A model generated the notes under the pieces. That model was not told where the DNA came from. It was given only the letters and a program-made list of their open reading frames with translations, and made no database searches. Both the position numbers and the translations under genes were made by a program. From the IMG/VR virus record IMGVR_UViG_3300024999_000051: DNA of 57,639 bases. One strand, given 5' to 3'. Within the stretch, counting starts at the first letter, position 1. Every line of letters begins with the position of its first letter. This document shows positions 9,953-54,298 of the stretch, piece by piece. This stretch comes from an uncultured virus (IMG/VR IMGVR_UViG_3300024999_000051). Lineage: Duplodnaviria > Heunggongvirae > Uroviricota > Caudoviricetes.

Positions 9953-10471
9953 GTGACTAAATACTGTTTTGATGCGTTGGTTGGAAATAGAAAAAGGAGG
10001 AATAAAATGCTTTTATGTTTGAATTGTTACAAAGTTTATAATCAGAAAACAATAAAGAATAATATGTGCAAAGTTAAAGAGTGCTATGGAGATGTAGTAG
10101 AAGTTGATGAATTATTTGTACCAGTAATTGCTGAGTTAAATAGGAAGGGATATAGGACTAGATATTGCTGTAGCGGGCATTACGCAGATGAATATTCAAG
10201 TAGTTACATATTTTTTGCAGAAGATTATGTGTTTCCAAGTTTACCAAAAAGTTATATGTATGATCAAGATTTAAATCCTTGGGCATATTTGAATACAAAT
10301 GGACAGCAGAGTAAAAGTAAAAGAAATACTATTCGGTGTGATTTTTATGGTAACAAAAATAAAAGTTTTAATGAATTGAGTAAAGATATTTTTAATAATG
10401 CTATTAATGTGTTGGAGTGGGCAGAAGGGTTAGAAGAGTTTAATATGAAAGATGGAGGAATAAGTAATTGA
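9953..10471 (+). CDS. Cys-rich hypothetical protein (likely start MLLCLNC)
   Basis: AAGGAGG RBS before internal ATG; LNRKGYRTRYCCSGH motif. Confidence 0.7.
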   Translation: MTKYCFDALVGNRKRRNKMLLCLNCYKVYNQKTIKNNMCKVKECYGDVVEVDELFVPVIAELNRKGYRTRYCCSGHYADEYSSSYIFFAEDYVFPSLPKSYMYDQDLNPWAYLNTNGQQSKSKRNTIRCDFYGNKNKSFNELSKDIFNNAINVLEWAEGLEEFNMKDGGISN

Positions 10472-12747
10472 TTAACAGCGATGTACAATTATTTTGGGCA
10501 AATGATGAGAATGGTGATATTGCAATTATATTTGATATGGTTGAAGAAGATAGGAATAAGAAATACACTTGTCCTGTTTGTGGATCTGATGTTAAACCTG
10601 TTGCTTTAGAAGGTAAAACAAAAGATGGTAAAGTAGCACAAGTATCTTCTCACTTCTCTCATTTTGATGCTAGTAAATGTAACAGCGAAAGTGCAGTACA
10701 TTGGTGGTTTAAAAATAAGATATTGCTCAACGGAGATAATTTTATTATTAAGACAGATGTTGAAAATGAATACAAATGCAAAGAAGTGTTGATTGAACAA
10801 TTTTATAGAACTGAGTTTGGTATTTATAGACCAGATATAACTATCATTACTGAATGTGATAAGACAATTTATTTTGAGATGAATTATACTAACAAAAAGA
10901 AAATAGAAGATTATATGGATAAGTGGTTAGAGTTAGGCAATCCAGTTGTAGAAGTTGATATTAAGATGCTTATGGAAGCAAGTTTCAACAAAAGTACATA
11001 CGAATTCAGAGCTTTATTTTATGAAGGAAAATGTTTTAATACAAAGAAGAATGATTTGTATTATGATACTATCGGACAATTAAAAGAAAGAATATGTAAA
11101 AACAATATTATTGATAATGAAATAAGAGAAAGAATTAGAAAGCTTGATTGGTTTTGGATGGAAACGATAAATTATAAAAGAGGAGAAACTAATATTGAGC
11201 AGTTGGTAGATTATATTGATTATTCTGAACAAGACGAAAAGGATTTAATTTTTATAATACTATCTAAGAAAAGATGTGTGTCGATATATGAGGATTATAT
11301 AAATTATAAGGTTGAATTGTTTGAGAAGTTGGCAAATAATTATATAGGCAGATTGGAAGATGGTATTTATAAGGAATATTTTTTAATTAGTAAAATTAAA
11401 GTTGGTAGAAAAAATAAAAATATTATTTACAATACTATTCAATTGAATAATAATTATTATAAAAATTTATGCCTAGATTTTGAAGTAATTAAATATACAA
11501 AAGAGCAATATTATGAATCTTCAGTTGAAAATGTAGATAATATTATTGAGTTAATACCATATCATAATAAAATTAAGGATATTTATTTGAAAATTAAAAG
11601 TAATTATTTAGATAAATTAAATAATGATGTAATTTATTATATAGATAAACAATATGATGATCTCTATTTATCTATAACACAAAGTAACAACATTAATGAT
11701 AATTTTCTATATAAGATAACTTTAAAAGATTGGTATACAACTTATTCATCCATATATGTTAGTTTAGATCATATTAGATGTGAGTGTAATAATAAAAAGA
11801 AGGAAATTAAATTAGACATTATAGATGATAAAAATTATAACAAAAGTGTAGAGTTTATATCTAATATTATGTGTGATGGGATAGACCTATATAATCAAAA
11901 TTTGATTGAGAAAGAAGAGAAGAAACTTAAAGAAAAAATAGAAATGGAAATAAAAAATAAAATATATGAACAAAAGGCTTTATTAGAAATTAAAGAAAAT
12001 AGACAAAATTTTTCAAAGCAACTATTAAATATTTCTAATATTTTTGAAAATCATAAAGAAAAAATAGTTAATTATTGTTTAGATTATATATTGGATAATA
12101 AATACGATAATTTACTATATTTTAAAGATTATAGAGATTTGGAATTTATTATATATAGTGATTCATATTTACATGACCCAGAGGGGATTAAAAAATATTA
12201 CTATAATAATGACTTTGATTTATCCTTAAAAAAATCAAATTGTAAACTTATTAAAATAGAAAGATATTTAGATAATAAAATTTATATAACTGAAATAAAT
12301 AATGATTATGAAATAGATAATAATTTACAAAAACCAGAATATAAATTTACAAAATTATTTAATAAGGAATTAAATTTATCATTTAAATATATTGGGAAAA
12401 ATACAAAAAGTTTACTTAGATATGATTTTTTGAATGCAGAAAAACAAATTAAAGAAATTTTAAAAAATGTATCTGAATTAAAATATAGTTTTCCAATACA
12501 TAATTCTGATTTGTATTGTAATAAAATATATGATATTCCTGAAATTACAGACGAAGAAATAAATAAGAAAATATTTAAAGTTCTTTATCCTATTGTTTGT
12601 CTATCAGAAAAGAATAATGATGATATTTTAAAAATACAGTTAAATTCAGATTTTACAATAGAAAATGGCAACAAAAAACCTTGGTTGATAAAAGGGTTTG
12701 TAGAAAGTCTTAGTAAAATTGGAGTTAAAGCATTTAACATAATTTAA
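10468..12747 (+). CDS. Large protein with N-terminal CoiA-like Zn-finger plus PD-(D/E)XK nuclease domain
   Basis: YTCPVC..HFSH..ESAVH and RPDI...YFEM motifs. Confidence 0.6.
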   Translation: MINSDVQLFWANDENGDIAIIFDMVEEDRNKKYTCPVCGSDVKPVALEGKTKDGKVAQVSSHFSHFDASKCNSESAVHWWFKNKILLNGDNFIIKTDVENEYKCKEVLIEQFYRTEFGIYRPDITIITECDKTIYFEMNYTNKKKIEDYMDKWLELGNPVVEVDIKMLMEASFNKSTYEFRALFYEGKCFNTKKNDLYYDTIGQLKERICKNNIIDNEIRERIRKLDWFWMETINYKRGETNIEQLVDYIDYSEQDEKDLIFIILSKKRCVSIYEDYINYKVELFEKLANNYIGRLEDGIYKEYFLISKIKVGRKNKNIIYNTIQLNNNYYKNLCLDFEVIKYTKEQYYESSVENVDNIIELIPYHNKIKDIYLKIKSNYLDKLNNDVIYYIDKQYDDLYLSITQSNNINDNFLYKITLKDWYTTYSSIYVSLDHIRCECNNKKKEIKLDIIDDKNYNKSVEFISNIMCDGIDLYNQNLIEKEEKKLKEKIEMEIKNKIYEQKALLEIKENRQNFSKQLLNISNIFENHKEKIVNYCLDYILDNKYDNLLYFKDYRDLEFIIYSDSYLHDPEGIKKYYYNNDFDLSLKKSNCKLIKIERYLDNKIYITEINNDYEIDNNLQKPEYKFTKLFNKELNLSFKYIGKNTKSLLRYDFLNAEKQIKEILKNVSELKYSFPIHNSDLYCNKIYDIPEITDEEINKKIFKVLYPIVCLSEKNNDDILKIQLNSDFTIENGNKKPWLIKGFVESLSKIGVKAFNII

Positions 12748-12762
12748 GGAGGAGGTATTAAT

Positions 12763-15561
12763 TTGATTAAGCAACAGCAGTTTTATGTATTCCGTATTAA
12801 ATCTTCTAGGTTGAAAGAATACAAATACAACGTAGATTTAACCATAGAACAAGCAAGGAAGAATAAAGAGTTAATATCTCTTGGTAACAGTGAACTGATT
12901 AGGCAAATCAAGAACCACAAGGAGGTAGATACTAAAAAACTTCAGGAATTAAACAAAATAAAGAAAAACATTAAGTTTCAAAAATCATCAGATGCAAATA
13001 TTAAAGCATTGGGGAATATCCAAAAACAAATTGATGATATATTATTTATTCCAGAAGTAATTGTAACAAATATAAACTCAAATAGTCAATATAAGAATAT
13101 GTATGCTGATACTATAACTGTGAATGGGAAGGTTTTTAGGAGATTCATGTGTGGTAGTGGTCATTCCCGAAATAGCAAGGTTATTTTTGTAGAAGAAGAA
13201 ACTATCAATAGAATTAAACCTATATTAGAAAATGGGTATGACAATGAAAAAGACTTCAGTGCAAATAAATTTAATGCCTATTTTGCCCTCTACAGCAGTA
13301 GCACATACAAAGTAAGAAACTTAAATTTCTGTGTTGTAAAAGATTTAGAAGTAAATATTAAGAGAAAAGTGGATTTTGTATTTCAGGATGAAGAAAAAAC
13401 ATGGGTAGAAGAGTTAGATAATCATTCTATAGATTTAAAACCTCATGACGGAGAAGGTATTTTAACTATTAGAGGTGCAAAGATTTGGGCAGAGGATCTA
13501 GAAATTAAAGATTACATTCCAGGATTTTTCGGGATTAGAAATTCGTTTATTAAAGGGATGTTAATTTCCTACCCCGTGGATGAGTACACTAATGAAATAT
13601 CAGGCACATGTAAATTTGTAGATGCATGGGGGACTGAAAGAAATTCTAATGATTATGATATTTTTCTCACGACTAGTCAACTAAAATTATGGAAGAATTA
13701 TAAGTCACTTGAGGAATTTACTAAAAACTGTGAAGATAATAATTTGTCTTGGGGAGTATGTCATGTTGCTCCCCAACGCAACAATAATTATTGTTTGACA
13801 AACTACCAATATTTACAGACATTAGATATGAAAGATGATGATATTACAGAACTTTGTAAATTCAATGTAGATTGGTTTAATGATATTTTAGGTGGAGATT
13901 CTATAAAAACAGCTTTGTATTTATTAGGTAAAGGTGTTGAAAAAATAGCAAATATAGATGATATTCACAATACCATTGTGAAAGCTATTTTATTAAACAA
14001 TACCTTATCTAAAGACATATATATACAAACTAAAATAATGAGTAGTATAAGAAAAAAGATTCAACACTCATATGCTGGAAAAGTTCTTGTTCAAGGAGGA
14101 TACCAAACTATGTTGGCAGATCCATTTAGTTTATGTCAAAACATATTTGGTGAAAAACCAGAAGATTGTACTGGATTACTTAATGAAGGAGAACATTATT
14201 CAGCATATTGGAATAGTAAAAATGTAACAAGTGTTGATGCGTGTAGAAGTCCTCTTACCCATTACTCAGAACATAATATATTAAATCTTCAAAATCATAA
14301 TGCGGTTAATCATTGGTATAGATATCAAACAACTGGAATTATTTATCCAACACTAGGATTAGACACAATTCGTCACGCAGATTCAGATTTCGACCTAGAT
14401 TTGGTATTTACTTCCAATAGTTCAGTATTTCTAAGATGCGCTCATAAAGACACTTTGCCTATTACATATGAAAAGAAAACTGCTCCAATTGACAAACTTA
14501 CAGAAGATGCAATGTTTCAAGCAGATTTATTGAGTTTTAGCAATGATATAGGTACTATTACTAATTATTCTACAGATATGTATACTATGTTAGAGAACTT
14601 TCACAAAGGAGGTAAATCTCATGATACAATATTAGAAAGATTAAAAATAACTCGTATGCTTCAAGGAAATGCAATAGATAAGTCTAAAGGGGTGCAAGTG
14701 CAAGACTTCCCTAAAGATTGGATTACTTATCAAACAATAAGATATAAAGATGAATTAGATGAAGATGGCAATATAATTGAAGGCAAAGAGAAAGATACAC
14801 CAGAATCAATTAAAGAAAAGAAATTCCTAAATAAATTAGTAATTCATAAGAAACCATATTTTCAAGGTTGGATATATTCAAAATATAGGAAGAAGTATTT
14901 AGAATATATAGATAAGGCTAATTTGTATTGTAAAGTAATTTTTAAATTATCATTAGATCAATTAAAAGAAAAGAGAAGAAAAACTAAGGAAGAAAATGAT
15001 TACATGAAGTTTCATTATCATAATTTACCTCTTAGTATATCTCCAAGTGTGATGAATAAATTGTGTTGGCACATGGAGTCTGCTTGTAAAGATATAAAAA
15101 CAGAGGTTAATGTAGGTAATAACGCAGACATTGTAGAAGTATTAAAAGATAAAGATATAGAGAAAAATGATGTGATATTTTCAAAAGTTTTGAAATTGTA
15201 TAAAGATTTTTGTGGAAAAAAGAGAATTCATGAGAAAACTAAACAAAGATCATATACAAAAGATAAATATGATGAAGAATCTTATGATGATTTACAAACA
15301 TTTTACAAACAAATATATAGAGAAGCGTATAAAATATGTTCAAATACCTCAGAATTAATAAACTATGCTACAGAAATTACCTATGAATTATATCCAAAAG
15401 ACAAGAAAGATTTCTTGTGGGATGTATTTGGAAAAGATGTTTTAGTAAATATAGAAAAGAATAAACAAGATAAGGTTTTTATACCTGTATTAGACGATAA
15501 TGGTACAATCGAATATTTAGGAGATAAGTTTAAATTACAGGAGGTTGTATATGATATTTAA
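12763..15561 (+). CDS. yonO: YonO-like single-subunit DNA-dependent RNA polymerase (RdRP/double-psi-barrel family)
   Basis: HDGEG, IRNSFIKG, CRSP, DSDFDLD, IGTITN and AIDKSKG motifs; SPbeta-like position before HU and late genes. Confidence 0.85.
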   Translation: MIKQQQFYVFRIKSSRLKEYKYNVDLTIEQARKNKELISLGNSELIRQIKNHKEVDTKKLQELNKIKKNIKFQKSSDANIKALGNIQKQIDDILFIPEVIVTNINSNSQYKNMYADTITVNGKVFRRFMCGSGHSRNSKVIFVEEETINRIKPILENGYDNEKDFSANKFNAYFALYSSSTYKVRNLNFCVVKDLEVNIKRKVDFVFQDEEKTWVEELDNHSIDLKPHDGEGILTIRGAKIWAEDLEIKDYIPGFFGIRNSFIKGMLISYPVDEYTNEISGTCKFVDAWGTERNSNDYDIFLTTSQLKLWKNYKSLEEFTKNCEDNNLSWGVCHVAPQRNNNYCLTNYQYLQTLDMKDDDITELCKFNVDWFNDILGGDSIKTALYLLGKGVEKIANIDDIHNTIVKAILLNNTLSKDIYIQTKIMSSIRKKIQHSYAGKVLVQGGYQTMLADPFSLCQNIFGEKPEDCTGLLNEGEHYSAYWNSKNVTSVDACRSPLTHYSEHNILNLQNHNAVNHWYRYQTTGIIYPTLGLDTIRHADSDFDLDLVFTSNSSVFLRCAHKDTLPITYEKKTAPIDKLTEDAMFQADLLSFSNDIGTITNYSTDMYTMLENFHKGGKSHDTILERLKITRMLQGNAIDKSKGVQVQDFPKDWITYQTIRYKDELDEDGNIIEGKEKDTPESIKEKKFLNKLVIHKKPYFQGWIYSKYRKKYLEYIDKANLYCKVIFKLSLDQLKEKRRKTKEENDYMKFHYHNLPLSISPSVMNKLCWHMESACKDIKTEVNVGNNADIVEVLKDKDIEKNDVIFSKVLKLYKDFCGKKRIHEKTKQRSYTKDKYDEESYDDLQTFYKQIYREAYKICSNTSELINYATEITYELYPKDKKDFLWDVFGKDVLVNIEKNKQDKVFIPVLDDNGTIEYLGDKFKLQEVVYDI

Positions 15562-19620: not shown

Positions 19621-19746
19621 ATGGATGTAATACTAAGCGAAATTCTAAATGAACTCAAACAAATAAAAGAATTACTAGCCCCACATGACTGTAGTGCTAG
19701 TAACGATTCTAAGACATACAAACTTACTCCCTATGAAAAGGAATAA
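19621..19746 (+). CDS. 41-aa peptide (MDVILSEILNELKQIKELL...)
   Basis: GAGGTG RBS; manual translation. Confidence 0.5.
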   Translation: MDVILSEILNELKQIKELLAPHDCSASNDSKTYKLTPYEKE

Positions 19747-19786: not shown

Positions 19787-20464
19787 ATGTCTAATTCACA
19801 AAACATTAATTCGACAACTTCACTAAAAGAGTCCTTTAGGATTCTAAATGTATTAGACCAACACACATCTTCCCTCCTGTCTTATATTTCCAACAAATCA
19901 AATTCATTAAAAGTAGAGGAAATACACTTAAAGTCAAAAGTAACAGAAAATCAAGATGAAACAATTGATCAAACTACAGAGCGTCAATATAATTGTTCTG
20001 TAACTGATATTTCTCATTTAATTTTTCAACTTATTAGTCAAAAACTAACCCTATCTCTAGCTATAGAAAATGCGAAGAAAAATTTATTACTTGATTGGAA
20101 GGAAAATGGAGAGCATTTAACATTAGATACAGGTATATTGTTTGCGAAAAAGAGCAGAGAATTGTCTAATAGTCTTAAATATTTACTTGATTTAAAACCA
20201 TCTGAAGCAAAGTCAACTGGTTCGGACTTCATCTTTAATGCAGAACTAAATCAGGTACAATACAAATTCCCAATAGAAAAGAAAGTATCTTTAGATTTTG
20301 ATAGAAATGAGATTAATACTTTGTATAAACAAACAATGAATACTGCTAACACATTGTCGATTCAGATAGAAAAGGCCATGATGCAAGATATTGTGGAGTT
20401 TGTTCCTGTTTATGATATTTTGTCGTCAACATCTGAAATTGTGGAAGAGTATTTATCAATTTAA
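19787..20464 (+). CDS. Alpha-helical/coiled-coil hypothetical protein, putative partner of the downstream ncRNA
   Basis: AAGGA RBS; helical periodicity (SLKESFRILN..LSLAIENAKK..TANTLSIQIEKAM). Confidence 0.75.
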   Translation: MSNSQNINSTTSLKESFRILNVLDQHTSSLLSYISNKSNSLKVEEIHLKSKVTENQDETIDQTTERQYNCSVTDISHLIFQLISQKLTLSLAIENAKKNLLLDWKENGEHLTLDTGILFAKKSRELSNSLKYLLDLKPSEAKSTGSDFIFNAELNQVQYKFPIEKKVSLDFDRNEINTLYKQTMNTANTLSIQIEKAMMQDIVEFVPVYDILSSTSEIVEEYLSI

Positions 20465-20517
20465 CAATGACAATTAATAAGAGAATTGCCTAACCACAAT
20501 TCTCTTATTAAAAACAA

Positions 20518-20939
20518 CTAACCAAAAGCAAAGCAAGATATAGACTATTTCGTATACATCTGAAATTAGATGTTAAATCTTATTTCAAAATTAAAGCTCA
20601 AATAATGCAAGATTGTGTAGATTTACTTTACATAACTTATACATTTGAAACATGAATAATAAACAGGTTTTACTTAATAGTAAAAACAAGAAATCGCTAA
20701 TCATTTTCGCAAAACATAAATTCACTATTCACAAATTCGATATTACATTAATACATTATTCATTAGCACAATAATCGCTTTCGCTAATCACACTCAAATA
20801 ATAAAAATTTAGAAGAAATTCTAAAACTGATTTAAATATAAAAGTGGTAATATCTCATTAGAGGTATTGATAATATAATAGTATGAATCAAAAGAAATTA
20901 ATTAATAAATAGTCTTATTTTGCAATGCTTTTTGGTTAG
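20518..20939 (+). ncRNA. Candidate ~420-nt ncRNA with terminal closing stem and central heptamer array
   Basis: 20518-20550 pairs with 20907-20939; several internal hairpins; ~15 units like WAWTCRC/T at 20691-20797; no ORF. Confidence 0.6.
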
Positions 20940-21222
20940 ATATAATAAATTATGTGGATACATTGAAGAATTACGAAAAGTTATGACTCAATGTTGAAAT
21001 AGCAGGAGAAGTTACGTAAGGTTATTTTCCTGCAAGAATTCAAATAAGACAACTGCGATTAATTTAGTTGTTGCCTTCATATCAGATAAGATGGTAATAA
21101 TGTTATAAAGACTAAATCCATCTATTATTTTAAATTACTGAATAGGTTTTGCACAATATAACCTAGATAAAAATTGTGCATTTACAATACTTTAAAAACT
21201 GCATTTCCTAGGTATTAAATAT

Positions 21223-21297
21223 GGACGATTAGCTTAACAGGAAAAGCGTGGGTTTGAAAAACCTAAGTTCGATGTTCGATCCATCGGTTGTCCACCA
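21223..21297 (+). tRNA. tRNA-Phe (GAA) with encoded CCA
   Basis: Cloverleaf: acceptor GGACGAT/GTTGTCC, D GCTT/AAGC, anticodon stem TGGGT/ACCTA with loop TTGAAAA, T arm CGATG-TTCGATC-CATCG, ACCA end. Confidence 0.85.
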
Positions 21298-21488
21298 AAT
21301 TATTATTATATTATTTATTCTCTATAAAGGAGATGATTAATAAAACAATGAAAGAAACTAATATATATGATTCAATTAATGAAGATACAACATGTCCTTT
21401 ATGTTTTAAAGGGAGGTTCTGGCTAAAATTTTATTGTGGTAAGACAATATTATGGTGTGCTGATTGTGGACACTGGATTATAATTTGA
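21288..21488 (+). CDS. Small zinc-ribbon protein (true start likely downstream of the tRNA)
   Basis: CPLC...CADC; AAGGAG RBS near 21327. Confidence 0.55.
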   Translation: MSTKLLLYYLFSIKEMINKTMKETNIYDSINEDTTCPLCFKGRFWLKFYCGKTILWCADCGHWIII

Positions 21489-22083: not shown

Positions 22084-22671
22084 ATGTCAGAAATGAAAGA
22101 TTTTGTTAACGATATAAATAGCGAATTTGTAAATATGGTAGGTGGGTCTTACGCATCAATAAAAACTGGTGAAATATTTACACAAAAGGAATTAGATAAA
22201 CTTGTAAAAAGTAAAGTTGAAGCATTTAATATTGAAAGATTTAAAGAATCTGTTGCTTGTGGAGTACCACTTGATCAAGTTCTAATGAAGAAAAGGCCAC
22301 CTAAAAAGGAAACAAAAACAACTTATGAAGGTGGAGATTTTAATATTGTTTATCGTTTTAAATTAGAGGAGTTGATAAATATGCAATTAGAAGTAAATGA
22401 GAAACTTGTATATTACATATTAAGAGATTTTACAGTATTCCCTTCTAATTCTATTATGATAAATGATAAAGTTCCAACATTTGAAGAATTAGAACCTATT
22501 CTTGGATTAAAAGAAAGAACAATTAGGAAAGCAGTAAAAGCTCTTGAATTAAAAGGATTGTTTAAATTAAAACAATCTGGACATAAGAAAGTAATTTATG
22601 TGAATCCAGAATATTATGCCACGGGTAAGAATTTAGATATAGATACGGTAAAGATGTTTGATTTGATGTAA
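22084..22671 (+). CDS. Winged-HTH protein, RepL-like C-terminus
   Basis: EELEPILGLKERTIRKAVKALELKGL...IYVNPEY. Confidence 0.6.
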   Translation: MSEMKDFVNDINSEFVNMVGGSYASIKTGEIFTQKELDKLVKSKVEAFNIERFKESVACGVPLDQVLMKKRPPKKETKTTYEGGDFNIVYRFKLEELINMQLEVNEKLVYYILRDFTVFPSNSIMINDKVPTFEELEPILGLKERTIRKAVKALELKGLFKLKQSGHKKVIYVNPEYYATGKNLDIDTVKMFDLM

Positions 22672-25808: not shown

Positions 25809-26921
25809 ATGCCCATTCTTCTTTGTTTTATAAAAATAAGGGGAAATACACTAATAAGGAGTGAAGAAATGAAAAAATTAATGTCTCATACATATGAATA
25901 TGTATATAATTATTTCAAAGAAAGAGGATGCAAACTTCTAAGTAAAGAATATATAAATAATAGAACACCACTAGATTATATTTGTTTGTGTGGAAATCCA
26001 AGTAAAGTTTCTTTTAAAAATTTTAAAGGTGGAAATAGATGTAAAAAATGTATAAAAAATAATCCCACAAGAAAGAATTGGAATGCTTTTATGAAAACAA
26101 TGGAATTTGTTGAAGGATTTTTTAATAAAATGCATTGTAAATTATTATCTACCACATTTAATAATGATAAAGATAAGTTAAAATTTATTTGTTCTTGTGG
26201 TAAAGAAGATACGATTACCTTTGGAGCGTTTAAAAGAGGTTTGAGGTGCAAAGTTTGTTCAAATAATAAAAGTAGTAAAAATTTATCATATACCATTGAA
26301 TTTATTGATTATTACTTTACATATTTAGATATGAAGCTTTTATCAAATATATATGATAATGCTCAAACTGAGTTAAAATATGTTTGCACTTGTGGAAACG
26401 TGGCGCATACTAATTTCGCAAGAATAACTATGGGTAGTAGATGTGAAAAGTGTGCTATCAGTAGAAGAAGCGGTGAAAATTGTCATATGTATGACGAAGG
26501 ACAAACTCCTCTTGTTATACATTTGCGAGATAGAATAGGACAATGGAAAAGGGAATCTATGAAATTATCAAATTACAAATGTATAATCACTGGGAAAAGT
26601 TTTGATGTAGTTCATCATTTATATGGATTTAATATAATATTAAAAGAGACAATGAATATATTAAATTTAAAATATTATGATGAAATAAATAAATACACAA
26701 AAGAAGAATTAATTAATATTGAAAATATATGTTTTGAATTACATTATAAGCATGGTTTAGGGGTTTGTCTAGTTTTGCCAATGCATAAATTATTTCATTC
26801 CAGAGATTTATATGGAATAGGAGATAATACGCCAGAAGAGTTTGAAGAATTTAAAGTAAGATTAAAATCAGGAGAATTTAATGATTATTTATTAGAAAAT
26901 AATTTAACTTTGATAATTTAA
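25809..26921 (+). CDS. Free-standing Zn-finger-repeat HNH-like endonuclease (likely start ATG 25869)
   Basis: Repeated CxCG..RCxxC; C-terminal HHLY..H..FH..YG.G.NT domain shared with 29357. Confidence 0.7.
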   Translation: MPILLCFIKIRGNTLIRSEEMKKLMSHTYEYVYNYFKERGCKLLSKEYINNRTPLDYICLCGNPSKVSFKNFKGGNRCKKCIKNNPTRKNWNAFMKTMEFVEGFFNKMHCKLLSTTFNNDKDKLKFICSCGKEDTITFGAFKRGLRCKVCSNNKSSKNLSYTIEFIDYYFTYLDMKLLSNIYDNAQTELKYVCTCGNVAHTNFARITMGSRCEKCAISRRSGENCHMYDEGQTPLVIHLRDRIGQWKRESMKLSNYKCIITGKSFDVVHHLYGFNIILKETMNILNLKYYDEINKYTKEELINIENICFELHYKHGLGVCLVLPMHKLFHSRDLYGIGDNTPEEFEEFKVRLKSGEFNDYLLENNLTLII

Positions 26922-29356: not shown

Positions 29357-30907
29357 ATGTTGTTAACAAAAGAGGTAGAGGTAATCCTCCATGCAAGCAC
29401 CACTAAACATTATGAATTATCAGGCTATAAAATTCCAAGAGTAAAGGTTAAAAACAAATACGTTGTTAAAAAAGGTACTACAATAATAATTAAAGTTGAA
29501 GATCTATTGCCTTTATCTAATGTAATAGTGGAGTATGAATGCGATTATTGCGAAAGGCCAAAACAAATAGCGTATTGTGATTATACTAGAAAAAATACAA
29601 AAAATGATAAAGATTGCTGTATAGATTGTTTAGGGAAATATAAATCGGAGATTTCTAAAGAATTGTGGAAAGAAAAATTACAATTAGAAGTTAAAATATG
29701 TAGTAAGTGTAAAAGAGAGTTTCCTAAAACTACTGAATATTTTCGTCATGATTGCCATATTTGTGATAGGGAGTTACCTATTAATAGAGATTTTTATGAT
29801 ATAGATGATAGATGTTTAGATGGATATAGGGGAATTTGCCGTGAGTGCAATGGAGAAGATTTTTATCCAGAAATAAAAGCAGAACCTTGGAGTCAGCAAG
29901 ATATTGATATCATAATTGAATATTACGAAGAAAAATTTACTAAAGATATTCAATATATGTTAACTACTACTAGAACTGAAAAAGCAATACTACATATGGC
30001 ATCTAAGTTGGATTTGAGGAAAAATGATAACTATATAAGAGATTATAAAAAAATAAAATATAAAATAATAGATAATAAACTATATAAATTGTGTAAATGC
30101 TGTGAGGAATACTTACCAGTAGACAGAGTATATTTTCCTGACGACAAAACATGTACTGATAATTTAAGAAACGTATGTAGAATGTGTATAGGAAATAAAT
30201 ATTTATTTGATTCAAATGTCCATATATGGACTCAAGATGAGATAAATATAATACTTAATAATTATGCCAATATGACAAATACAGAAATAAAAGATATTCA
30301 TTTTCCAAGTTTGACAAATGGAAAGATAATGAGCAAAGGTAATAGTTTAAATCTTTATAAATCACAAGAAACATTAGATAGAATGTTTATAGAACTTGGT
30401 AAAATGACATCAAATAGATTATTATTACTTGAAAAATGGAAAGGTGAAGATAATCCTCAATACGATAGTCAAAGATTCGGCAATCTAAATCCTAATTACA
30501 AAGATGGAATTAGTGCTTTATCGCAAGAATTGAGAAGGAATATTAAACAGTGGAAGTTAGATAGTATGGAAAATGCTAATTATAAATGCTTTCTGTCAGG
30601 AGATAGATTTGATGATATTCATCACTTATATAGTTTTGGCAGTATAGTTCAGGATACCTTAAATGAAACTGGGATACAATTGTATGAGAATATTTCTTCT
30701 TATACACAAGAAGAATTGCAAAAATTAATTGATAAATGTTTGGAAATACATTATCGTTACCCTCTGGGGATATGTATGCAAAAGAAATACCACATACAAT
30801 TCCATGTCGAATTTGGATATGGAAACAATACACCTGAACAATTTTATCAATTCATTGAAAATTATTATGATGGAAAATATAAAGACTTAGAAGAAGTTAG
30901 TTATTAA
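29357..30907 (+). CDS. Free-standing Zn-finger-repeat HNH-like endonuclease
   Basis: Multiple CxxC; C-terminal domain homologous to that of 25809. Confidence 0.7.
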   Translation: MLLTKEVEVILHASTTKHYELSGYKIPRVKVKNKYVVKKGTTIIIKVEDLLPLSNVIVEYECDYCERPKQIAYCDYTRKNTKNDKDCCIDCLGKYKSEISKELWKEKLQLEVKICSKCKREFPKTTEYFRHDCHICDRELPINRDFYDIDDRCLDGYRGICRECNGEDFYPEIKAEPWSQQDIDIIIEYYEEKFTKDIQYMLTTTRTEKAILHMASKLDLRKNDNYIRDYKKIKYKIIDNKLYKLCKCCEEYLPVDRVYFPDDKTCTDNLRNVCRMCIGNKYLFDSNVHIWTQDEINIILNNYANMTNTEIKDIHFPSLTNGKIMSKGNSLNLYKSQETLDRMFIELGKMTSNRLLLLEKWKGEDNPQYDSQRFGNLNPNYKDGISALSQELRRNIKQWKLDSMENANYKCFLSGDRFDDIHHLYSFGSIVQDTLNETGIQLYENISSYTQEELQKLIDKCLEIHYRYPLGICMQKKYHIQFHVEFGYGNNTPEQFYQFIENYYDGKYKDLEEVSY

Positions 30908-39193: not shown

Positions 39194-40825
39194 TTGGCAA
39201 CAAAACTTACATATCAAATCATTAAAAACTATATAAATAGCGAAGAAACAGGAAATGGTTGTAGTCTAAAAACTACAGAAGAAGAATTTAATCAAGCGAA
39301 GATAGATCAAAACAAAAATAGTTCACATGTAGTAATATTTATGAAATGTAAATGTGGAAATAATATTGAGAAATCTTATGATAATTTTAAATACTCTAAG
39401 AAGCAATGTAATAAATGCTCTGGATTAGAAAGAAGGACTAATGAAGAAGTTAAATATTTCATAGAAATAGAATCTCAATCAAATTGCAAGTTATTATCAG
39501 AATATACTATTGCAACTGATTTATTAGATTTAGAATGTGGTTGTGGAAGGCCATTTAAGAAAAGTTGGAATAAGTTTTATAGTTGTAATCAAAGAACATG
39601 TAATGAGTGTAGCAATAAATTATCAGGAGAAAAACATAAAATACCTTATAAAGATATAAAGCATTATATAGAGATTGAAAGTAATAGTGGTTGTGAGTTA
39701 ATAACAACTGAAGATGAATATGTAAACACACATCTAGATATTGATATTAAATGCAAATGTGAAAACCCTTTTACTACATCTTTTAAGCAATTTAAAGGAG
39801 AACAATCTAAAAAGCAACATTGTGATGATTGTGGCAATAAAGCAAGAGGAGAAAAACTGAGTAAACCATATATAGAAGTTAAAAATACTATAGCAATCAA
39901 TGGTTGCGAATTATTAACTACTATTGAAAATTATGAAAATTCTAATTCTCTTTTGGAAATCAAATGTAATTGTGGTAAACCATTTGAAACAACATACAAG
40001 ATGTTTTCAAGGAAAATTGGTGCAAAAGACAAATGTGATGATTGTGCATTAATTAATTTTAAAAAATTAAATAAAATACCTTATAACGAAGTATATGATT
40101 TATTTAAAATTGAGAATTGTATATTATTAACTTCCGAGCAAGAATATTATACTACTCCAGATGATGACAATAAATTAAGTTATAAATGTTCTTGCGGAAA
40201 TAATAAACCATCTTTTATTTCTTTAGCTCACTTTAAAGGTGGTGAGAGGTGTAGAAGTTGCTTAAGACAGAGAGTTAAAGATACCAATCTCAAAAATAAT
40301 GGAGTAGAGTATCCTATGCAAAATCCAGAAATAAAAGAAAGAAATAGGCAATCTTTATATAAAAATGGAACTGCAAGATGTAGTAGGCAACAAAAATACA
40401 TACACAATCTTATAGGAGGAAAACTCAATTACCCATTTAAAGGATCTTCTCTTGATGTAGCATTTCCAGATGAAATGATTTATCTAGAATATGATGGTTC
40501 TGGGCATAGAATGAGTGTAACACTTGGAACATTTACAGAAAAAGAATTCATAAAAAGAGAAAGAAATAGAACCTATGGGTTACTACGTTCTGGTTGGAAA
40601 GAAATTAGAATCATTAGTGAAAAAGATGACCTAATCCCATCAGACCAAAAACTTCTAGAAATTCTATTATACGCACGTACATACCTCAATCAAAATCATC
40701 ATTATATTAAATTCGACATTGACAATTCAAAAATAATTAATTCTCAAGGTGAATTTGATTATGATTTTGGCGAACTAAGAAGAATCAAATCAACTGATAT
40801 TATAGAAATTCAAGTAGCAATATAA
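39194..40825 (+). CDS. Free-standing endonuclease: Zn-finger repeats plus Vsr/PD-(D/E)XK-like C-terminus
   Basis: Five CxCG..CxxC repeats; LDVAF..YLEYDGSGH..GWKEIRI. Confidence 0.75.
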   Translation: MATKLTYQIIKNYINSEETGNGCSLKTTEEEFNQAKIDQNKNSSHVVIFMKCKCGNNIEKSYDNFKYSKKQCNKCSGLERRTNEEVKYFIEIESQSNCKLLSEYTIATDLLDLECGCGRPFKKSWNKFYSCNQRTCNECSNKLSGEKHKIPYKDIKHYIEIESNSGCELITTEDEYVNTHLDIDIKCKCENPFTTSFKQFKGEQSKKQHCDDCGNKARGEKLSKPYIEVKNTIAINGCELLTTIENYENSNSLLEIKCNCGKPFETTYKMFSRKIGAKDKCDDCALINFKKLNKIPYNEVYDLFKIENCILLTSEQEYYTTPDDDNKLSYKCSCGNNKPSFISLAHFKGGERCRSCLRQRVKDTNLKNNGVEYPMQNPEIKERNRQSLYKNGTARCSRQQKYIHNLIGGKLNYPFKGSSLDVAFPDEMIYLEYDGSGHRMSVTLGTFTEKEFIKRERNRTYGLLRSGWKEIRIISEKDDLIPSDQKLLEILLYARTYLNQNHHYIKFDIDNSKIINSQGEFDYDFGELRRIKSTDIIEIQVAI

Positions 40826-44755: not shown

Positions 44756-46150
44756 TTGGAGGATATGTCATGTCGTGAGACACACCGCTATCCTTCTTTT
44801 TCTATGTTTAAAAGTAGAAATAAGGAGGATCAAATGGGATTAATTAGTAAAACAGCAATGACAAAATGGATGCACAATAATAAAATAAGGTATGAAGAAA
44901 GAGGATATGTTTTTACAAAATATAAAGATGAACTTGAAGTTAATATTAAAGATTTAAGTAATAGTAGTCATGTTTTAGTAAATGTTAAATGTGATTGTGG
45001 TAATTGTAAGAATCCATATTTAAAACCTATGACATGGGTGAATTATTTAACTAATGTTCATAAAGATAATAAATATTATTGTAATGAATGTGCTAAAAAA
45101 TTATATGGTGGAGTAAATATACAAAAATCAAAATTGAAAAATAGTATATCTTTTAAACAATGGTGTATCGAAAATAATCGTCAGGATATATTAGATCGGT
45201 GGGATTATGAATTAAACAATTGCAAACCTAGTGAAATAAGTTTTGGAACTCAAAAAAGATATTATTTTAAATGTCTAAGAAACTTACACAATAGCGAATT
45301 AAAAAATATAAAAAGTTTTACTAGTGGTCAAAATGGATCAATGGATTGTAATGCTTGTAATTCTATTGCACAATGGGGTATAGATAATTTAGGTGAAGAT
45401 TTTCTTGATAAATATTGGGATTATGAAAAGAATATAGTTTCCCCTTGGGATATCGATAAATGTTCTAATAAACATAAAATATTTATAAAATGTCAAGAAA
45501 AATATTATCATGAAAGTTATGAAGTATCACCAGATAATTTTACTAATAGTAGCAGATGTCCTTATTGTAATAATCGTAATGGTAAAATTCATAAATTAGA
45601 TTCTCTTGGAACAATATACCCAGATGTATTTAAATTTTGGTCAGATAAAAATGAAAACTCTCCATATGAATATGCTCCTATGAGTCATCAATATGTTTGG
45701 TGGAAATGTCCAGATGAAAAACATGAAGATTATTATAGACTAATATCTTCTTCATCAATTCGTGATTTTAGATGTCCAGAATGCCAATGTTCAACAGGTG
45801 AGATTGAAGTTGGTAAGAAATTATTGAATAAAGAAATTTACTATATCCCACAAAAAACATTTGATGGTCTGATTGGTCTAGGTGGAGGTTTATTATCTTA
45901 TGACTTTTATATTCCTAAAATAAATCTTTTAATTGAGTATCAAGGTGAAATGCACGAAAGATTTGTCAGAGGAATACATAAATCAATTAAAGACTTTGAA
46001 AAACAAGTAGAACATGATAGACGAAAAAAAGAATACGCAGAACAAAACAAATATAATTTTCTCGAAATATGGTATCAGGATTTTGATAATATAGAAGAGA
46101 TTCTTACAAAAGAATTAAATCTATTAGAGGAAGTGATGCTTATGATCTAG
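44756..46150 (+). CDS. Free-standing Zn-ribbon plus PD-(D/E)XK endonuclease (likely start ATG 44834)
   Basis: WDYE/WWKC repeats; SYDFY..LIEYQGEMH..DRRKK..LEIWY. Confidence 0.75.
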   Translation: MEDMSCRETHRYPSFSMFKSRNKEDQMGLISKTAMTKWMHNNKIRYEERGYVFTKYKDELEVNIKDLSNSSHVLVNVKCDCGNCKNPYLKPMTWVNYLTNVHKDNKYYCNECAKKLYGGVNIQKSKLKNSISFKQWCIENNRQDILDRWDYELNNCKPSEISFGTQKRYYFKCLRNLHNSELKNIKSFTSGQNGSMDCNACNSIAQWGIDNLGEDFLDKYWDYEKNIVSPWDIDKCSNKHKIFIKCQEKYYHESYEVSPDNFTNSSRCPYCNNRNGKIHKLDSLGTIYPDVFKFWSDKNENSPYEYAPMSHQYVWWKCPDEKHEDYYRLISSSSIRDFRCPECQCSTGEIEVGKKLLNKEIYYIPQKTFDGLIGLGGGLLSYDFYIPKINLLIEYQGEMHERFVRGIHKSIKDFEKQVEHDRRKKEYAEQNKYNFLEIWYQDFDNIEEILTKELNLLEEVMLMI

Positions 46151-48430: not shown

Positions 48431-50113
48431 ATGTTGAAAATGTTAATGACAAAAGAAATTGAAATAACAATCGTAGCTTTCACAGTAAAATATTATAAGA
48501 ATTTAGGATATAAAATACCAACAACTATTAATGATAAAGGCAAAGAGAAATTCATATTAAATAGTAAAATAATAGTAAAGATAGAAGATTTACCACTTGG
48601 AAGTCATGAAAAAGTTCATGTAAAATGTGACTTATGCGGAAAAGATATATATCCTCATTATGATATGTATAACCGTTCGGTAAAAAAATATAAAGAAAAC
48701 AATATTGATTCATGCGACGAGTGCAAAAGCGAAAAAACAAAACTTATGCAAATTGTTAGAAATAAAACCATGTTAAATGAAAATGGACATGGATATTGGT
48801 GTGATAAAGATAATTTAATTAAAGAGTTTAATAAATACTATAAACAATATGGTACATTCTCTGAAATGAATAAAAACAGTTACGGGACTTCTATAATAAA
48901 TGGATTACAAAAACATGATGAAAATATTACATCAATGGCATTGCAATTGGGTTATTCAATTCAAGATTTTGGTAGAATCCCGTATGGATGGTATGATGAT
49001 TTTGATATTTTTAAAGAGGATATGATTGATCTTATTAATAAATATGGTAGGTTTCCAACTTCATTAGAAATTCAAAAATGTTTAAGAATTGGTTCATTAG
49101 TAATTAAAAAACATGGTGGCATGCAAGAAATAAAAAATAAATTAAATTACGATAGAGACAATAATCTTTTAGATGATAATAATTATCACAACGCATCATC
49201 CTATGAATATATAATTGCACAATTTTTAATACATAATACCAATATAAAATATGATAGAAATGTAATTATTTCATTAGAAGATGGTAAATTTAACTGTGAT
49301 TTTAGAACTATTATTGATGATAATATTGAAAATAATTATCTTTGGATAGAAGCATGGGGAGGTTATGGAGAAAGTAAATTTAAAGGAGAATATGATAAGA
49401 CTCACAATATAAAAATGAACATTTATAACAAATATAGTTACAAACTCATTAGTCTATATCCAAAAGATTTTGCCAACAAATCATATGAAGAAATACAAAA
49501 TATGCTCCGTGAAAAATTCAAACCTTATATGGATTTAAAATTCAAATATATAGACAATAAATTATTAAATACTAGTACATATAAAAATAGAACAGATAAT
49601 GAGATTCTAGAAGAATTTATGAGTTATTCTAGTGATGGATTTTACTTCCCATCTGATAAAAATGTGCAAAAATTAAATAGTAAATTGTATACAGAAGTTT
49701 ACAAAAGATTTGGAAATTTTAGCAAAATGGCAGAAAAATTTAATATGAGAGACAGGTTAAACTTCAAACCCAATGGATATTGGTCAGAAGAACGGTTGTT
49801 GGATTATTTAATTAAAATTCATAATAAATATGGTAAATTTTTATCAATGGCAAAAGTTAAAGAAAATAAAGAAGTATGTGATATTTGTAAAGAATTATAC
49901 AGTGGGTTTGATAAAGTGTCAAAATATGGTGGTAAGATCCTTATGGAATTAAAATTTTTACATATTTATTTAAATAAAATTAATGATTATGATTTATTAT
50001 ATTTAAATAAAATAATTAAAGGGACAATTAGTATCAAGCCACAACACCAACTCCTAGCAAAACAAATCCTAGAAAAATACAATAACCAACAATTAATTAT
50101 AAGTAATAGCTAA
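48431..50113 (+). CDS. Free-standing endonuclease-like protein (GYW repeats, PD-(D/E)XK-like core)
   Basis: N-terminus shared with 29357 and 44834; CDFR..WIEAWG. Confidence 0.6.
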   Translation: MLKMLMTKEIEITIVAFTVKYYKNLGYKIPTTINDKGKEKFILNSKIIVKIEDLPLGSHEKVHVKCDLCGKDIYPHYDMYNRSVKKYKENNIDSCDECKSEKTKLMQIVRNKTMLNENGHGYWCDKDNLIKEFNKYYKQYGTFSEMNKNSYGTSIINGLQKHDENITSMALQLGYSIQDFGRIPYGWYDDFDIFKEDMIDLINKYGRFPTSLEIQKCLRIGSLVIKKHGGMQEIKNKLNYDRDNNLLDDNNYHNASSYEYIIAQFLIHNTNIKYDRNVIISLEDGKFNCDFRTIIDDNIENNYLWIEAWGGYGESKFKGEYDKTHNIKMNIYNKYSYKLISLYPKDFANKSYEEIQNMLREKFKPYMDLKFKYIDNKLLNTSTYKNRTDNEILEEFMSYSSDGFYFPSDKNVQKLNSKLYTEVYKRFGNFSKMAEKFNMRDRLNFKPNGYWSEERLLDYLIKIHNKYGKFLSMAKVKENKEVCDICKELYSGFDKVSKYGGKILMELKFLHIYLNKINDYDLLYLNKIIKGTISIKPQHQLLAKQILEKYNNQQLIISNS

Positions 50114-52322: not shown

Positions 52323-53210
52323 ATGTTAGAGAATATTGAATTAAAAAAGACTAATAAAATGTTTGAGGAATTGTTCAGGTATAATAAGAAATCAGGAATA
52401 TACATGATAACAAATATAATTAATGATAAAAAATATATTGGACAGTCTAGAAATCTATGGAAACGTATTAGAGAGGGACACGTTGGTAAATTGAGAACAA
52501 ATTTACATTATAATATTCAGAACGCTTGGAATAAATATGGGGAAGATAATTTCAAATTTGAGATTATAGAAGAATGTGTGAACAACAGTGAGTTAAAAAC
52601 AAGAGAACAATATTGGATGGATTATTATAAAAGTTATAATAAGGATGTTGGTTACAATATTAGAGGAAAAGCAGACAATAATCATGGTTATTTAGAATCA
52701 GAAGAATTAAAGAAAATAAAAAGTGAGCGAATGAAAGGTGAAAACAATTATATGTATGGGAAAACTCATACTGATGAAGTAAAAAGAATTATAGCTTTAA
52801 ACACAATGAAAAAAGTATACCAATTAGATTTAAGTGGAAATCTTTTAAATACATTTGAAAGTTCAACTGAAGCAAGTAATGTTTTAGGTTTATGCGCTGA
52901 AAATATAAGAGCATCTCGTCAAGAAGTAAATGCAACTTATTCTGGATACATATGGTTAGGAGAAGAACAATATAACTCACCAAATAGGGACGATATTATT
53001 CAGAGGAGAATAATAAAAAATAACGGAAGACGTAAAGCAGTATATCAGATAGATTTAAATAATAATATTATTAATGAATATAAAGGTGTACGAGAAGCAC
53101 AAAGAATGACAAATATTTTTAATATTGGAAGTGTTGTCATTGGGAGGTTAAAAACAGCAGGTGGGTTTAAGTGGATTTATAAAGAAGATTATAAAAATGT
53201 AAGTGCTTAA
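52323..53210 (+). CDS. GIY-YIG homing endonuclease with NUMOD3/NUMOD1 modules
   Basis: SGIYMITN..KYIGQS, GYNI, MYGKTHT, TAGGFKW. Confidence 0.9.
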   Translation: MLENIELKKTNKMFEELFRYNKKSGIYMITNIINDKKYIGQSRNLWKRIREGHVGKLRTNLHYNIQNAWNKYGEDNFKFEIIEECVNNSELKTREQYWMDYYKSYNKDVGYNIRGKADNNHGYLESEELKKIKSERMKGENNYMYGKTHTDEVKRIIALNTMKKVYQLDLSGNLLNTFESSTEASNVLGLCAENIRASRQEVNATYSGYIWLGEEQYNSPNRDDIIQRRIIKNNGRRKAVYQIDLNNNIINEYKGVREAQRMTNIFNIGSVVIGRLKTAGGFKWIYKEDYKNVSA

Positions 53211-53230: not shown

Positions 53231-54298
53231 ATGGTGATAATTATTCCTAGAGAAACATTTAAAAAACAAATAACTTCTCCAGAACTAACAGCACAATTTA
53301 ATCCTGAAAATGTAAAATTGGTTAATAGATTTCTAAAATACAAAAACACCTCAAAGAGCGATGGTACTGTAACTGGCTATACATCGGACTTGAATATCTT
53401 TTTCACTTGGAATTTATTGGAAAATGATAACAAGTTATTTACGGATATGAAGAAAATTGAGTTTGCAGATTTCTTTAGTTATGGAGTAGAAGAATTACAT
53501 TGGAGTGCTAATAGATTTAGTAGAATTAGGTCTGCTTTGAGTTCATTGTCAGAGTTCATTGAAAGATTTTATGATGAAACATATGTTAATTATCGTAATA
53601 TTGTGCTAAAAGCAGTAGATTTAATGCCAAAGTCTCCTGTTAGAGAAAAGACAATCCTATCCGAAGAACAGATTGATTATTTATTGGATCATTTGAAAAA
53701 CACATTAAAAAGACCACAAGAGGCATGTCTTTTGGCATTAGCTATTAGTTCAGGAGCAAGAGTTAGCGAATTACTTAGGTTTAAAACATCTATTATTGAT
53801 GAAAATAATATTGCATGGGACTTATTTTTAGAAACCTTAAAGCCAATAAAAACGAAAGGTTTTACAAAACAAGGCAAACCACTAATAAAATACATAGTGA
53901 AAGATATATTTCTACCATATTACAATGATTGGTTAATTGAAAGAGAAAAAGTTATGAAGAAATATAATATGGATCATGACTCTATTTTTATAACAAGAGA
54001 TGGCAAACCTGCAACAATACATACTATTAGGGGTTGGATTGAAAAGTGGGATGATTTTATGGAAGATTCGATATATTTCCACAATTTTCGACATTATACA
54101 GTCACATATTTAACAAAAATAGGTTTAGAATCCGATTTTATTATTGAAATTATGGGATGGTCGTCAAGTGAAATGTATCGAATTTACAATGATTTAACAG
54201 CAAAAGATAGACAATGGAAAGGTTTAGATAAACTTAAAGCTCATTTAGATAATAAAGAAGTTATTGAAGAAGAGGATAAAGTTGAAGAAGATAAATAA
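53231..54298 (+). CDS. Tyrosine recombinase (yomM-like position)
   Basis: SGARVSEL, KTKG, HNFRH, MGW..RIY catalytic set. Confidence 0.9.
   Translation: MVIIIPRETFKKQITSPELTAQFNPENVKLVNRFLKYKNTSKSDGTVTGYTSDLNIFFTWNLLENDNKLFTDMKKIEFADFFSYGVEELHWSANRFSRIRSALSSLSEFIERFYDETYVNYRNIVLKAVDLMPKSPVREKTILSEEQIDYLLDHLKNTLKRPQEACLLALAISSGARVSELLRFKTSIIDENNIAWDLFLETLKPIKTKGFTKQGKPLIKYIVKDIFLPYYNDWLIEREKVMKKYNMDHDSIFITRDGKPATIHTIRGWIEKWDDFMEDSIYFHNFRHYTVTYLTKIGLESDFIIEIMGWSSSEMYRIYNDLTAKDRQWKGLDKLKAHLDNKEVIEEEDKVEEDK

Follow-up and report, generated by a model that had tools for sequence, protein, structure and literature searches.

The 57,639-nt stretch analyzed here (the window) comes from an uncultured virus of the Caudoviricetes (IMG/VR record IMGVR_UViG_3300024999_000051) and carries a gene for a 225-amino-acid (aa) protein, p225, followed by a noncoding element at 20518 to 20939 on the plus strand. 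The element is closed by a ~30-bp helix and is present in a single copy. It represents a family of large structured RNAs that is absent from Rfam 15 and is obligately linked to the p225 protein family. Most likely, the RNA and the protein function jointly and form an RNA-protein module that has not been described before. The gene and the parts of the element were as follows.

19787-20464, plus strand: p225 gene, an open reading frame (ORF) for the 225-aa protein
20474-20511, plus strand: P0, a 15-bp hairpin between the p225 stop codon and the RNA, a perfect inverted repeat with the invariant loop CUAACCACA
20518-20550, plus strand: 5' arm of the closing helix P1 (inverted repeat, minimum free energy [MFE] fold, and helix scoring)
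20556-20587, plus strand: H-type pseudoknot from a pseudoknot search, with S1 pairing 20556-20560 to 20569-20573 and S2 pairing 20561-20566 to 20582-20587
20613-20636, plus strand: hairpin H2 (MFE fold; consensus fold columns 198-220)
20668-20686, plus strand: hairpin H3 (MFE fold; consensus fold columns 261-279)
20691-20797, plus strand: unpaired, G-poor centre with ~14 C-containing motifs (periodicity test, unpaired probability, composition, and nhmmer)
20807-20824, plus strand: hairpin H4 (MFE fold; folds in relatives too)
20848-20869, plus strand: hairpin H5 (MFE fold; folds in relatives too)
20907-20939, plus strand: 3' arm of P1 (inverted repeat, MFE fold, and helix scoring)

A first-pass annotation, made from the letters of the window, had described an ORF-free stretch after the p225 gene, closed by a stem of ~30 bp and containing hairpins on both sides of an unpaired centre. 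Each part of this description was borne out. The two arms of P1 form 30 pairs, and the P1 5' arm occurs once in the window, where zero occurrences are expected by chance. A 441-nt stretch of the locus folded at -81.4 kcal/mol, compared with -54.3 ± 4.5 kcal/mol for 100 dinucleotide shuffles (z = -6.0, no shuffle as good); its reverse strand gave a z score of -3.8. The flanking hairpins were present in the MFE fold. Between the p225 gene and the tRNA-Phe gene downstream, only two short ORFs were found, of 40 aa (20652-20774, plus strand) and 44 aa (20591-20725, minus strand), and both frames are broken by single-base indels in the alignment of relatives. The pseudoknot, which had gone unremarked in the earlier reading, lies immediately inside the P1 5' arm and recurs in other lineages with equal layout and position and with covariation. 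The stem sequence of H2 differs in loci L035, L030, L004, and L034, yet it folds there. Pairs in P0 covary in relatives (for example, alignment columns 50/82 and 52/80), and columns 104/550 in P1 run through an A-U, G-U, and G-C series. P0 is not followed by a U-run on the plus strand and is thus no standard terminator. In addition, the P0 loop CUAACCACAA (20490-20499) is almost identical to the initial 10 nt of the P1 5' arm, which makes it complementary at 9 of 10 positions to the terminal part of the P1 3' arm (20930-20939). Matching changes in the P0 loop and the P1 3' arm end were read by eye in L004. This complementarity could provide an alternative pairing or a switch.

The first-pass annotation had proposed that homologs of p225 be collected and checked for a stem-closed periodic array behind each, and the result agreed with its expectation. 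A profile-based scan yielded 73 viral loci with p225 relatives down to ~25% identity; removal of duplicates and of loci with <560 nt downstream, and addition of further close relatives, gave 59 distinct downstream regions. One apparent relative at 23% identity (L011) was spurious and lay inside a 1,384-aa ORF. A helix-closed element was found downstream of the p225-family gene in all 59 loci. With a simple local-helix scorer, 52 of them showed a closing helix that scored at least 45, started within 200 nt of the stop codon, and enclosed 380 to 522 nt (cross-locus controls, 30.2 ± 7.5, maximum 65, n = 177). Four loci showed a weaker helix at the equivalent place together with nhmmer homology (E values of 1e-26 to 1e-52), and in the other three the helix was displaced 186 to 313 nt further downstream, with scores of 73, 65, and 64. 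The 52 loci with the stronger helix fell into 20 groups that are unrelated by blastn but have a common architecture. A long P1 carries an H-type pseudoknot immediately inside its 5' strand; variable hairpins come next, then the centre, which is C-rich and G-poor, then further hairpins, and last the P1 3' strand. Close relatives of p225 (84 to 88% identity) kept the element directly downstream.

The linkage was also examined in the reverse direction. A search of IMG/VR with a 28-nt pattern of the pseudoknot alone gave 100 matching stretches, and all 80 of the loci fetched carried a same-strand p225-family ORF ending 55 to 144 nt upstream. This set partly overlaps the 59 loci. An earlier pattern of 14 bases was too short, with a p225-family gene in 4 of 80 fetched loci, the others being presumably chance matches. 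Among 27 loci anchored on PhoH, 9 had both the protein and the element and the others had neither, and a phage with a 94% identical PhoH lacked both. Thus, the p225 gene and the element come and go as a pair within a mosaic region. The element was present once in each of the five viral records examined, including a complete genome of 178,304 bp. No other protein family recurred in more than 9 of 51 family loci; the recurrent neighbours were PhoH, RNA ligase (7 loci), an SPFH protein, and tRNA genes.

The position of the element behind a gene would also suit a cis-acting 3' untranslated region, in which P1 and the pseudoknot control the stability or processing of the p225 mRNA and hence p225 dosage. 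In 38 of the 59 distinct loci, the P1 5' arm begins 1 to 29 nt past the stop codon, so that translation termination and helix formation could interfere with each other. The element lies on the strand of the gene, and the window offers no promoter-sized gap between P0 and P1. However, a size of 380 to 520 nt, a covarying pseudoknot, a helix of ~40 bp, and a conserved 100-nt periodic core far exceed the needs of known 3' stabilizers. The element is also separated from the gene in the three loci with a displaced helix, and in one of these (L073) a 93-aa ORF covers most of the interval. Finally, the centre is the most conserved part of the element, which points to a trans-acting surface. We therefore regard a purely cis-acting role as quite unlikely.

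Next, we compared pairing on the two strands. The helix score was higher on the strand of the gene in 46 of the 52 loci and lower in 5, and G-U pairs numbered 261 on this strand compared with 72 on the other. This asymmetry indicates that the fold belongs to the plus-sense single strand, that is, to the transcript. The pseudoknot was aligned from the 23 of 52 loci returned by the pseudoknot search, minus four rows misaligned by MAFFT (L076 and three of the window's group), which left 19 sequences from four lineages. Its covariation was 0.326, compared with 0.123 in shuffles (0 of 500 as high) and at most 0.099 in slid controls; 90.3% of the cells pair, and 6 of the 13 pairs changed on both sides, a count that leans toward structure because the rows had been picked by the pseudoknot finder. 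In one lineage, compensatory changes were seen in 20 of 48 predicted consensus pairs, mostly in P1.

These results bear on whether the element acts as DNA. It could then be an origin of replication that carries short iterons, a site for packaging, or a miniature inverted-repeat transposable element. Its AT-rich noncoding sequence, its inverted repeats, and the recurrence of short words would fit such a role, as would the weakly replication-initiator-like winged helix-turn-helix (wHTH) protein encoded at 22084-22671. In contrast, the helix is better on one strand, and a covarying pseudoknot would be meaningless in duplex DNA. The initiator-like gene is no recurrent neighbour of the family, and a motif spacing of 7.5 nt (see below) is out of phase with the DNA helix. 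An iteron origin was rejected on the asymmetric pairing, the pseudoknot covariation, and the nonrecurrence of that gene; a miniature transposable element was rejected on the single copy in the window and in all five viral records and on the fixed place relative to the p225 gene. A DNA-level function is thus highly improbable.

The centre of the element had been read in the first-pass annotation as tandem units of 6 to 9 nt. The regular spacing held up, and the idea of one repeated unit did not. The 107 nt of the centre comprise 42 A, 24 C, 6 G, and 35 T, and its motifs include UCGC, UCAC, UCAU, and ACAU, with C-purine-pyrimidine as the core. The starts of successive C clusters are spaced by 7, 6, 7, 8, 7, 8, 8, 8, 7, 6, 9, 6, and 7 nt, and the power of the C signal peaks at a period of 7.5 nt, a peak that none of 2,000 dinucleotide-preserving shuffles reached. 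Tandem Repeats Finder (minimum score, 30) reported no array in 20691-20797, and the centre is therefore not a repeat of one unit; the spacing and the core are shared, and the sequence is not. Across the family, periodicity at 7.25 to 8.25 nt gave a z score of 10.3, with 0 of 200 nulls reaching the value. The centre was more unpaired than the remaining element in 51 of the 52 loci (0.50 compared with 0.37). It contained 27% C and 13% G, compared with 16% and 20% elsewhere in the element, and was enriched in CGC, CGT, and TCG (52 loci). It is also the best sequence-conserved part across distant lineages, with nhmmer matches in L054, L084, and L102. The centre is not an ORF, given that its period is no multiple of 3 and that its frames are interrupted by indels. 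The motifs were also compared by eye with T-loop mimics and anticodon-loop pairers, and neither gave a consistent fit.

The p225 family comprised 478 clusters (50% identity; E ≤ 0.001), nearly all of 200 to 230 aa. It showed no match in Pfam, PHROG, NCBIfam, or PDB sequences; in 62 members, there was no Pfam match at E ≤ 0.01 and no PDB sequence match at E ≤ 1. Named members are called "hypothetical protein," except for one JGI label of translation initiation factor 1, and all are metagenomic. A tblastn search of 50,697 deposited phage genomes with three family members and a blastn search with the p225 locus against deposited phage records returned no match. Literature searches found no description of the RNA or of the p225 protein, although one under another name is possible.

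The first-pass annotation had called the protein helical and had suggested that it oligomerizes. The AlphaFold2 model of p225 (predicted local distance difference test [pLDDT] score of 96.3) contained four long helices, in keeping with the first point, but also beta strands, including a long beta-hairpin at residues 139 to 167 that carries the most conserved motif of the family. Near-invariant residues are polar, aromatic, or basic (K14, H47, K97, D114, N151, Q156, Y159, Y161, and S191). The sole fold match that stood out was 3kdq_A, an uncharacterized Corynebacterium protein (Z = 10.4; root mean square deviation, 4.4; 150 of 152 residues aligned). A further lead was DUF7873, found on 26% of one cluster with a score of 0.88 and without a Pfam sequence match. 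Foldseek searches against PDB and BFVD returned no match at E ≤ 0.001, and the TM-scores of the TolC entries were near 0.2. As for the second point, three modelled copies of p225 assembled so that each touched the others; the runs agreed on at least 87% of contacts, and the partner pLDDT was at least 79. The homo-oligomer score was 0.42, compared with 0.00 for the best control; on the calibration set, which used two copies where p225 was modelled as three, 20 of 30 proteins solved as homo-pairs scored this high, as did 1 of 23 single-chain proteins. The modelling thus predicts that p225 forms a homo-oligomer. Residues 150 to 158, which include N151 and Q156, lie outside the modelled interface, as does the tip of the conserved hairpin.

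How the protein and the RNA might work together was considered on this basis. The reading that we put first, with slightly less than an even chance of being right, is that a p225 homo-oligomer and the RNA act as one ribonucleoprotein. It is favoured by the total linkage in both directions, the short and fixed distance between gene and RNA, and the modelled oligomer. The polar, aromatic, and basic character of the near-invariant residues and the free position of the conserved hairpin tip also favour it. In addition, a period of 7 to 8 nt would suit one motif per subunit of ~25 kDa, by analogy with TRAP and viral nucleoproteins. In this reading, p225 would bind the periodic array directly.

In the proposed mechanism, an RNA of ~380 to 520 nt would be made from the same strand as the p225 gene, most likely on the same transcript. 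P1 would join its ends and probably serve as a double-stranded processing stalk, by analogy with the stalks cut by RNase III in rRNA and phage transcripts. Processing at P1 would release the RNA and leave the upstream mRNA ending in the P0 hairpin. Within P1, the released RNA would present the pseudoknot, the variable hairpins, and a single-stranded loop of ~105 nt with the C-purine-pyrimidine motifs. The p225 homo-oligomer would bind this RNA, its conserved beta-hairpin and a basic patch reading the periodic motifs, and the resulting ribonucleoprotein would act in phage RNA metabolism.

Several observations weigh against this mechanism or limit its support. Both directions of the linkage test were run within IMG/VR, and the reverse test covers those lineages that share the pseudoknot sequence. 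The p225 family is acidic, with a pI of 5.10 for the protein of the window and a median of 5.22 in the family (range, 4.56 to 6.77; n = 62), which is unusual for an RNA-coating protein. The three-copy model is a closed trimer, mismatched to ~14 RNA motifs, and not a many-subunit ring. The periodicity is clear in the window's group, L054, and L084 and blurred in GC-rich lineages. At L007 (4258-4590), the RNA lacks the part that matches 20607-20785 of the window, that is, two hairpins and most of the array, while the protein gene is intact; this variant retains P0, P1, the pseudoknot, and the 3' hairpins, and its contig also holds L015 and L044. Furthermore, the divergence of the RNA is decoupled from that of the protein. 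L017 shares 43% aa identity and 86% RNA identity with the window, and L004 shares 88% aa identity and 59% RNA identity, with a rewritten P1. The RNA and the protein thus recombine independently, yet they stay adjacent, and any recognition between them must rest on shared features only. Finally, three small metatranscriptomes of the same samples, the RNA sequencing runs searched, each contained next to none of the sampled words.

Some of these observations fit a stand-alone stable RNA or decoy, which would be excised from the shared transcript and act without touching p225. It could self-assemble in the manner of the GOLLD and ROOL RNAs, or its unpaired C-rich array could titrate either an RNA-binding factor of the host or a defence nuclease that cuts mRNA; p225 would then act in the same pathway, and the two genes would be kept together for this reason. 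The large size, the ornate fold, and the phage-borne location, frequently with tRNA genes close by (8 of 20 distant loci), resemble the setting of GOLLD and ROOL, and both the acidic protein and the independent recombination of the partners agree with such a role. The array also holds ACA, UACAU, and UCGC-type words, which we take to be cleavage words of some MazF-type nucleases. On the other hand, the linkage in both directions (59 of 59 and 80 of 80) at a fixed short distance is tighter than is usual for genes that share a pathway, and we are aware of no partner gene of this kind for GOLLD or ROOL. A decoy for monomeric nucleases would also need no 7.5-nt period. We consider an RNA that acts apart from p225 somewhat unlikely.

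If p225 and the RNA do form one particle, a more specific picture is possible, and we put it forward tentatively. The module would be a new class of viral ribonucleoprotein in which an acidic homo-oligomer of ~25-kDa subunits wraps, or is wrapped by, a stem-closed RNA lasso, with one C-purine-pyrimidine motif per subunit at a spacing of 7 to 8 nt. Carried in the tRNA and RNA-repair islands of large phages, it would manipulate host or phage RNA metabolism or defeat RNA-targeting defence.

The surroundings of the locus are those of a large tailed phage. The window is AT-rich (~27% GC). Along with virion proteins and numerous homing endonucleases, it encodes a helicase, a portal protein, and the large terminase subunit, and genes for an exonuclease, a PhoH/PIN protein, and an HU-like protein surround the p225 locus. 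The p225 locus was found at 100% identity in a viral record that shares 72% of the words of the window, and a related viral record of 178,304 bp is rated complete. Three further features lie at or downstream of the end of the element.

20919-20946, overlapping the P1 3' arm: sigma-70-like promoter match (TTTGCA, 16 nt, TATAAT), by consensus match
21223-21297, downstream of the RNA element: tRNA-Phe gene (ARAGORN)
22084-22671: gene for the weakly replication-initiator-like wHTH protein (PHROG, E = 5e-05)

The promoter match could drive transcription downstream of the element. tRNA genes were found near the element in the window and in the 8 distant loci mentioned above, and in none of the fetched flanks of seven close relatives; the link to tRNA-Phe is therefore not general. 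Just upstream of the tRNA-Phe gene, a hairpin with the conserved loop ATAACCTAGATAAAA lies at 21143-21185. In L004 its loop is unchanged and its stem is rewritten with compensatory changes, and homology to L031 and L016 resumes at this stretch. Upstream of the p225 gene, a 41-aa ORF (19621-19746) is kept at 61 to 95% identity in the module carriers L008, L030, L034, and L037 and was undetected in other relatives. Elsewhere, genes of HNH, GIY-YIG, and other homing-endonuclease-like types lie at 234-752, 25809-26921, 29357-30907, 39194-40825, 44756-46150, 48431-50113, and 52323-53210, and an integrase-like gene lies at 53231-54298. This load of homing-endonuclease-like genes is unusually high and fits the strongly mosaic relationship among related contigs. 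Two large ORFs of 759 and 932 aa at 10468-15561 had no Pfam match, and the latter matched only PHROGs of unknown function (phrog_8308, E = 9e-109). Matches to known RNAs were also seen in the flanks of other family loci. HEARO (IscB-associated) RNA (L054, 4042-4272; 135.9 bits) and an abiF RNA motif (L108, 4322-4358; 42.4 bits) each lie in a tRNA-rich flank, and a subthreshold match to an HDV-like ribozyme (Faecalibacterium prausnitzii) lies ~70 nt downstream of the family RNA of L084 (3685-3747; 33.5 bits, gathering score of 44, E = 0.014).

The element itself matched no catalogued RNA family, as the first-pass annotation had supposed on recognizing no named family. In the whole window, Rfam 15 at its gathering score returned tRNA only, and at E ≤ 10 the region 20300-21400 gave tRNA and chance-level matches far below the gathering score. 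Searches of 20 distant loci at the gathering score found nothing on the element, and searches of 8 loci at E ≤ 1 found nothing that overlapped it. A transfer-messenger RNA (tmRNA) was rejected because ARAGORN finds no tmRNA or tRNA-like domain, the ORFs of the centre are unconserved, and a 7.5-nt period is not codon-like. A ToxI-like tandem-repeat antitoxin was rejected as well, since Tandem Repeats Finder reports no array and only the motif spacing is regular. Few RNAs of bacteria and phages combine large size and an elaborate fold with an unexplained function, and every one of them has led to new biology. The dedicated and universally linked protein gene, which known phage examples lack, provides an experimental handle, and the linkage annotates 478 protein clusters that are unnamed in every library searched. 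The element also adds to the picture of phage tRNA islands as carrying more than tRNAs. Reading of the periodic array by an oligomer, if it occurs, would add a new case of RNA recognition with one motif per subunit.

The known systems closest to the p225-linked RNA each share part of its organization. GOLLD and ROOL are large ornate RNAs of phages and prophages, hundreds of nucleotides long, with pseudoknots and often beside tRNA genes; to our knowledge, they have no obligate partner gene and no long unpaired periodic centre. The p225-linked RNA resembles them in its length of hundreds of nucleotides, its multiple helices and pseudoknot, its phage-borne location, and its frequent proximity to tRNA genes. 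It differs in having no Rfam match, an obligate upstream protein gene, and a periodic unpaired centre. In Ro60 (Rsr)/Y RNA and SmpB/tmRNA systems, a dedicated protein gene lies beside an RNA whose ends are paired in a long helix. Here too, a protein gene adjoins a stem-closed RNA, with RNA ligase and tRNA genes nearby, and the order of a long helix, a pseudoknot, a single-stranded stretch, and further helices is tmRNA-like. Unlike these systems, p225 shows no sequence match to Ro60 or SmpB, and the element matches no tmRNA or Y RNA of Rfam.

In ToxIN, a type III toxin-antitoxin system, the antitoxin RNA ToxI is built of exact tandem repeats of 36 nt that precede the toxin gene, and a phage pseudo-ToxI provides a precedent for an RNA decoy. 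The coupling of a protein gene to a repetitive noncoding RNA is common to both; in the p225 system the RNA is downstream, has no tandem repeat, and is embedded in a large fold, and p225 matches no nuclease family. TRAP reads GAG or UAG at 5 to 6 nt, and CsrA reads GGA in hairpin loops. Regularly spaced short motifs in unpaired RNA were found here as well, and, as with TRAP and the trp leader or CsrA and CsrB/CsrC, many such motifs would be encoded alongside an oligomeric candidate reader, as judged from the model. The motif, C-purine-pyrimidine at ~7.5 nt, is different, and p225, at ~25 kDa, is acidic and unrelated in sequence to either protein. Finally, P1 resembles the RNase III stalks of rRNA and phage early transcripts, in which a helix of 30 to 45 bp with internal loops joins the ends of a stable RNA embedded in a longer transcript. 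This likeness accounts for P1 only, and the cargo RNA that P1 encloses is new.

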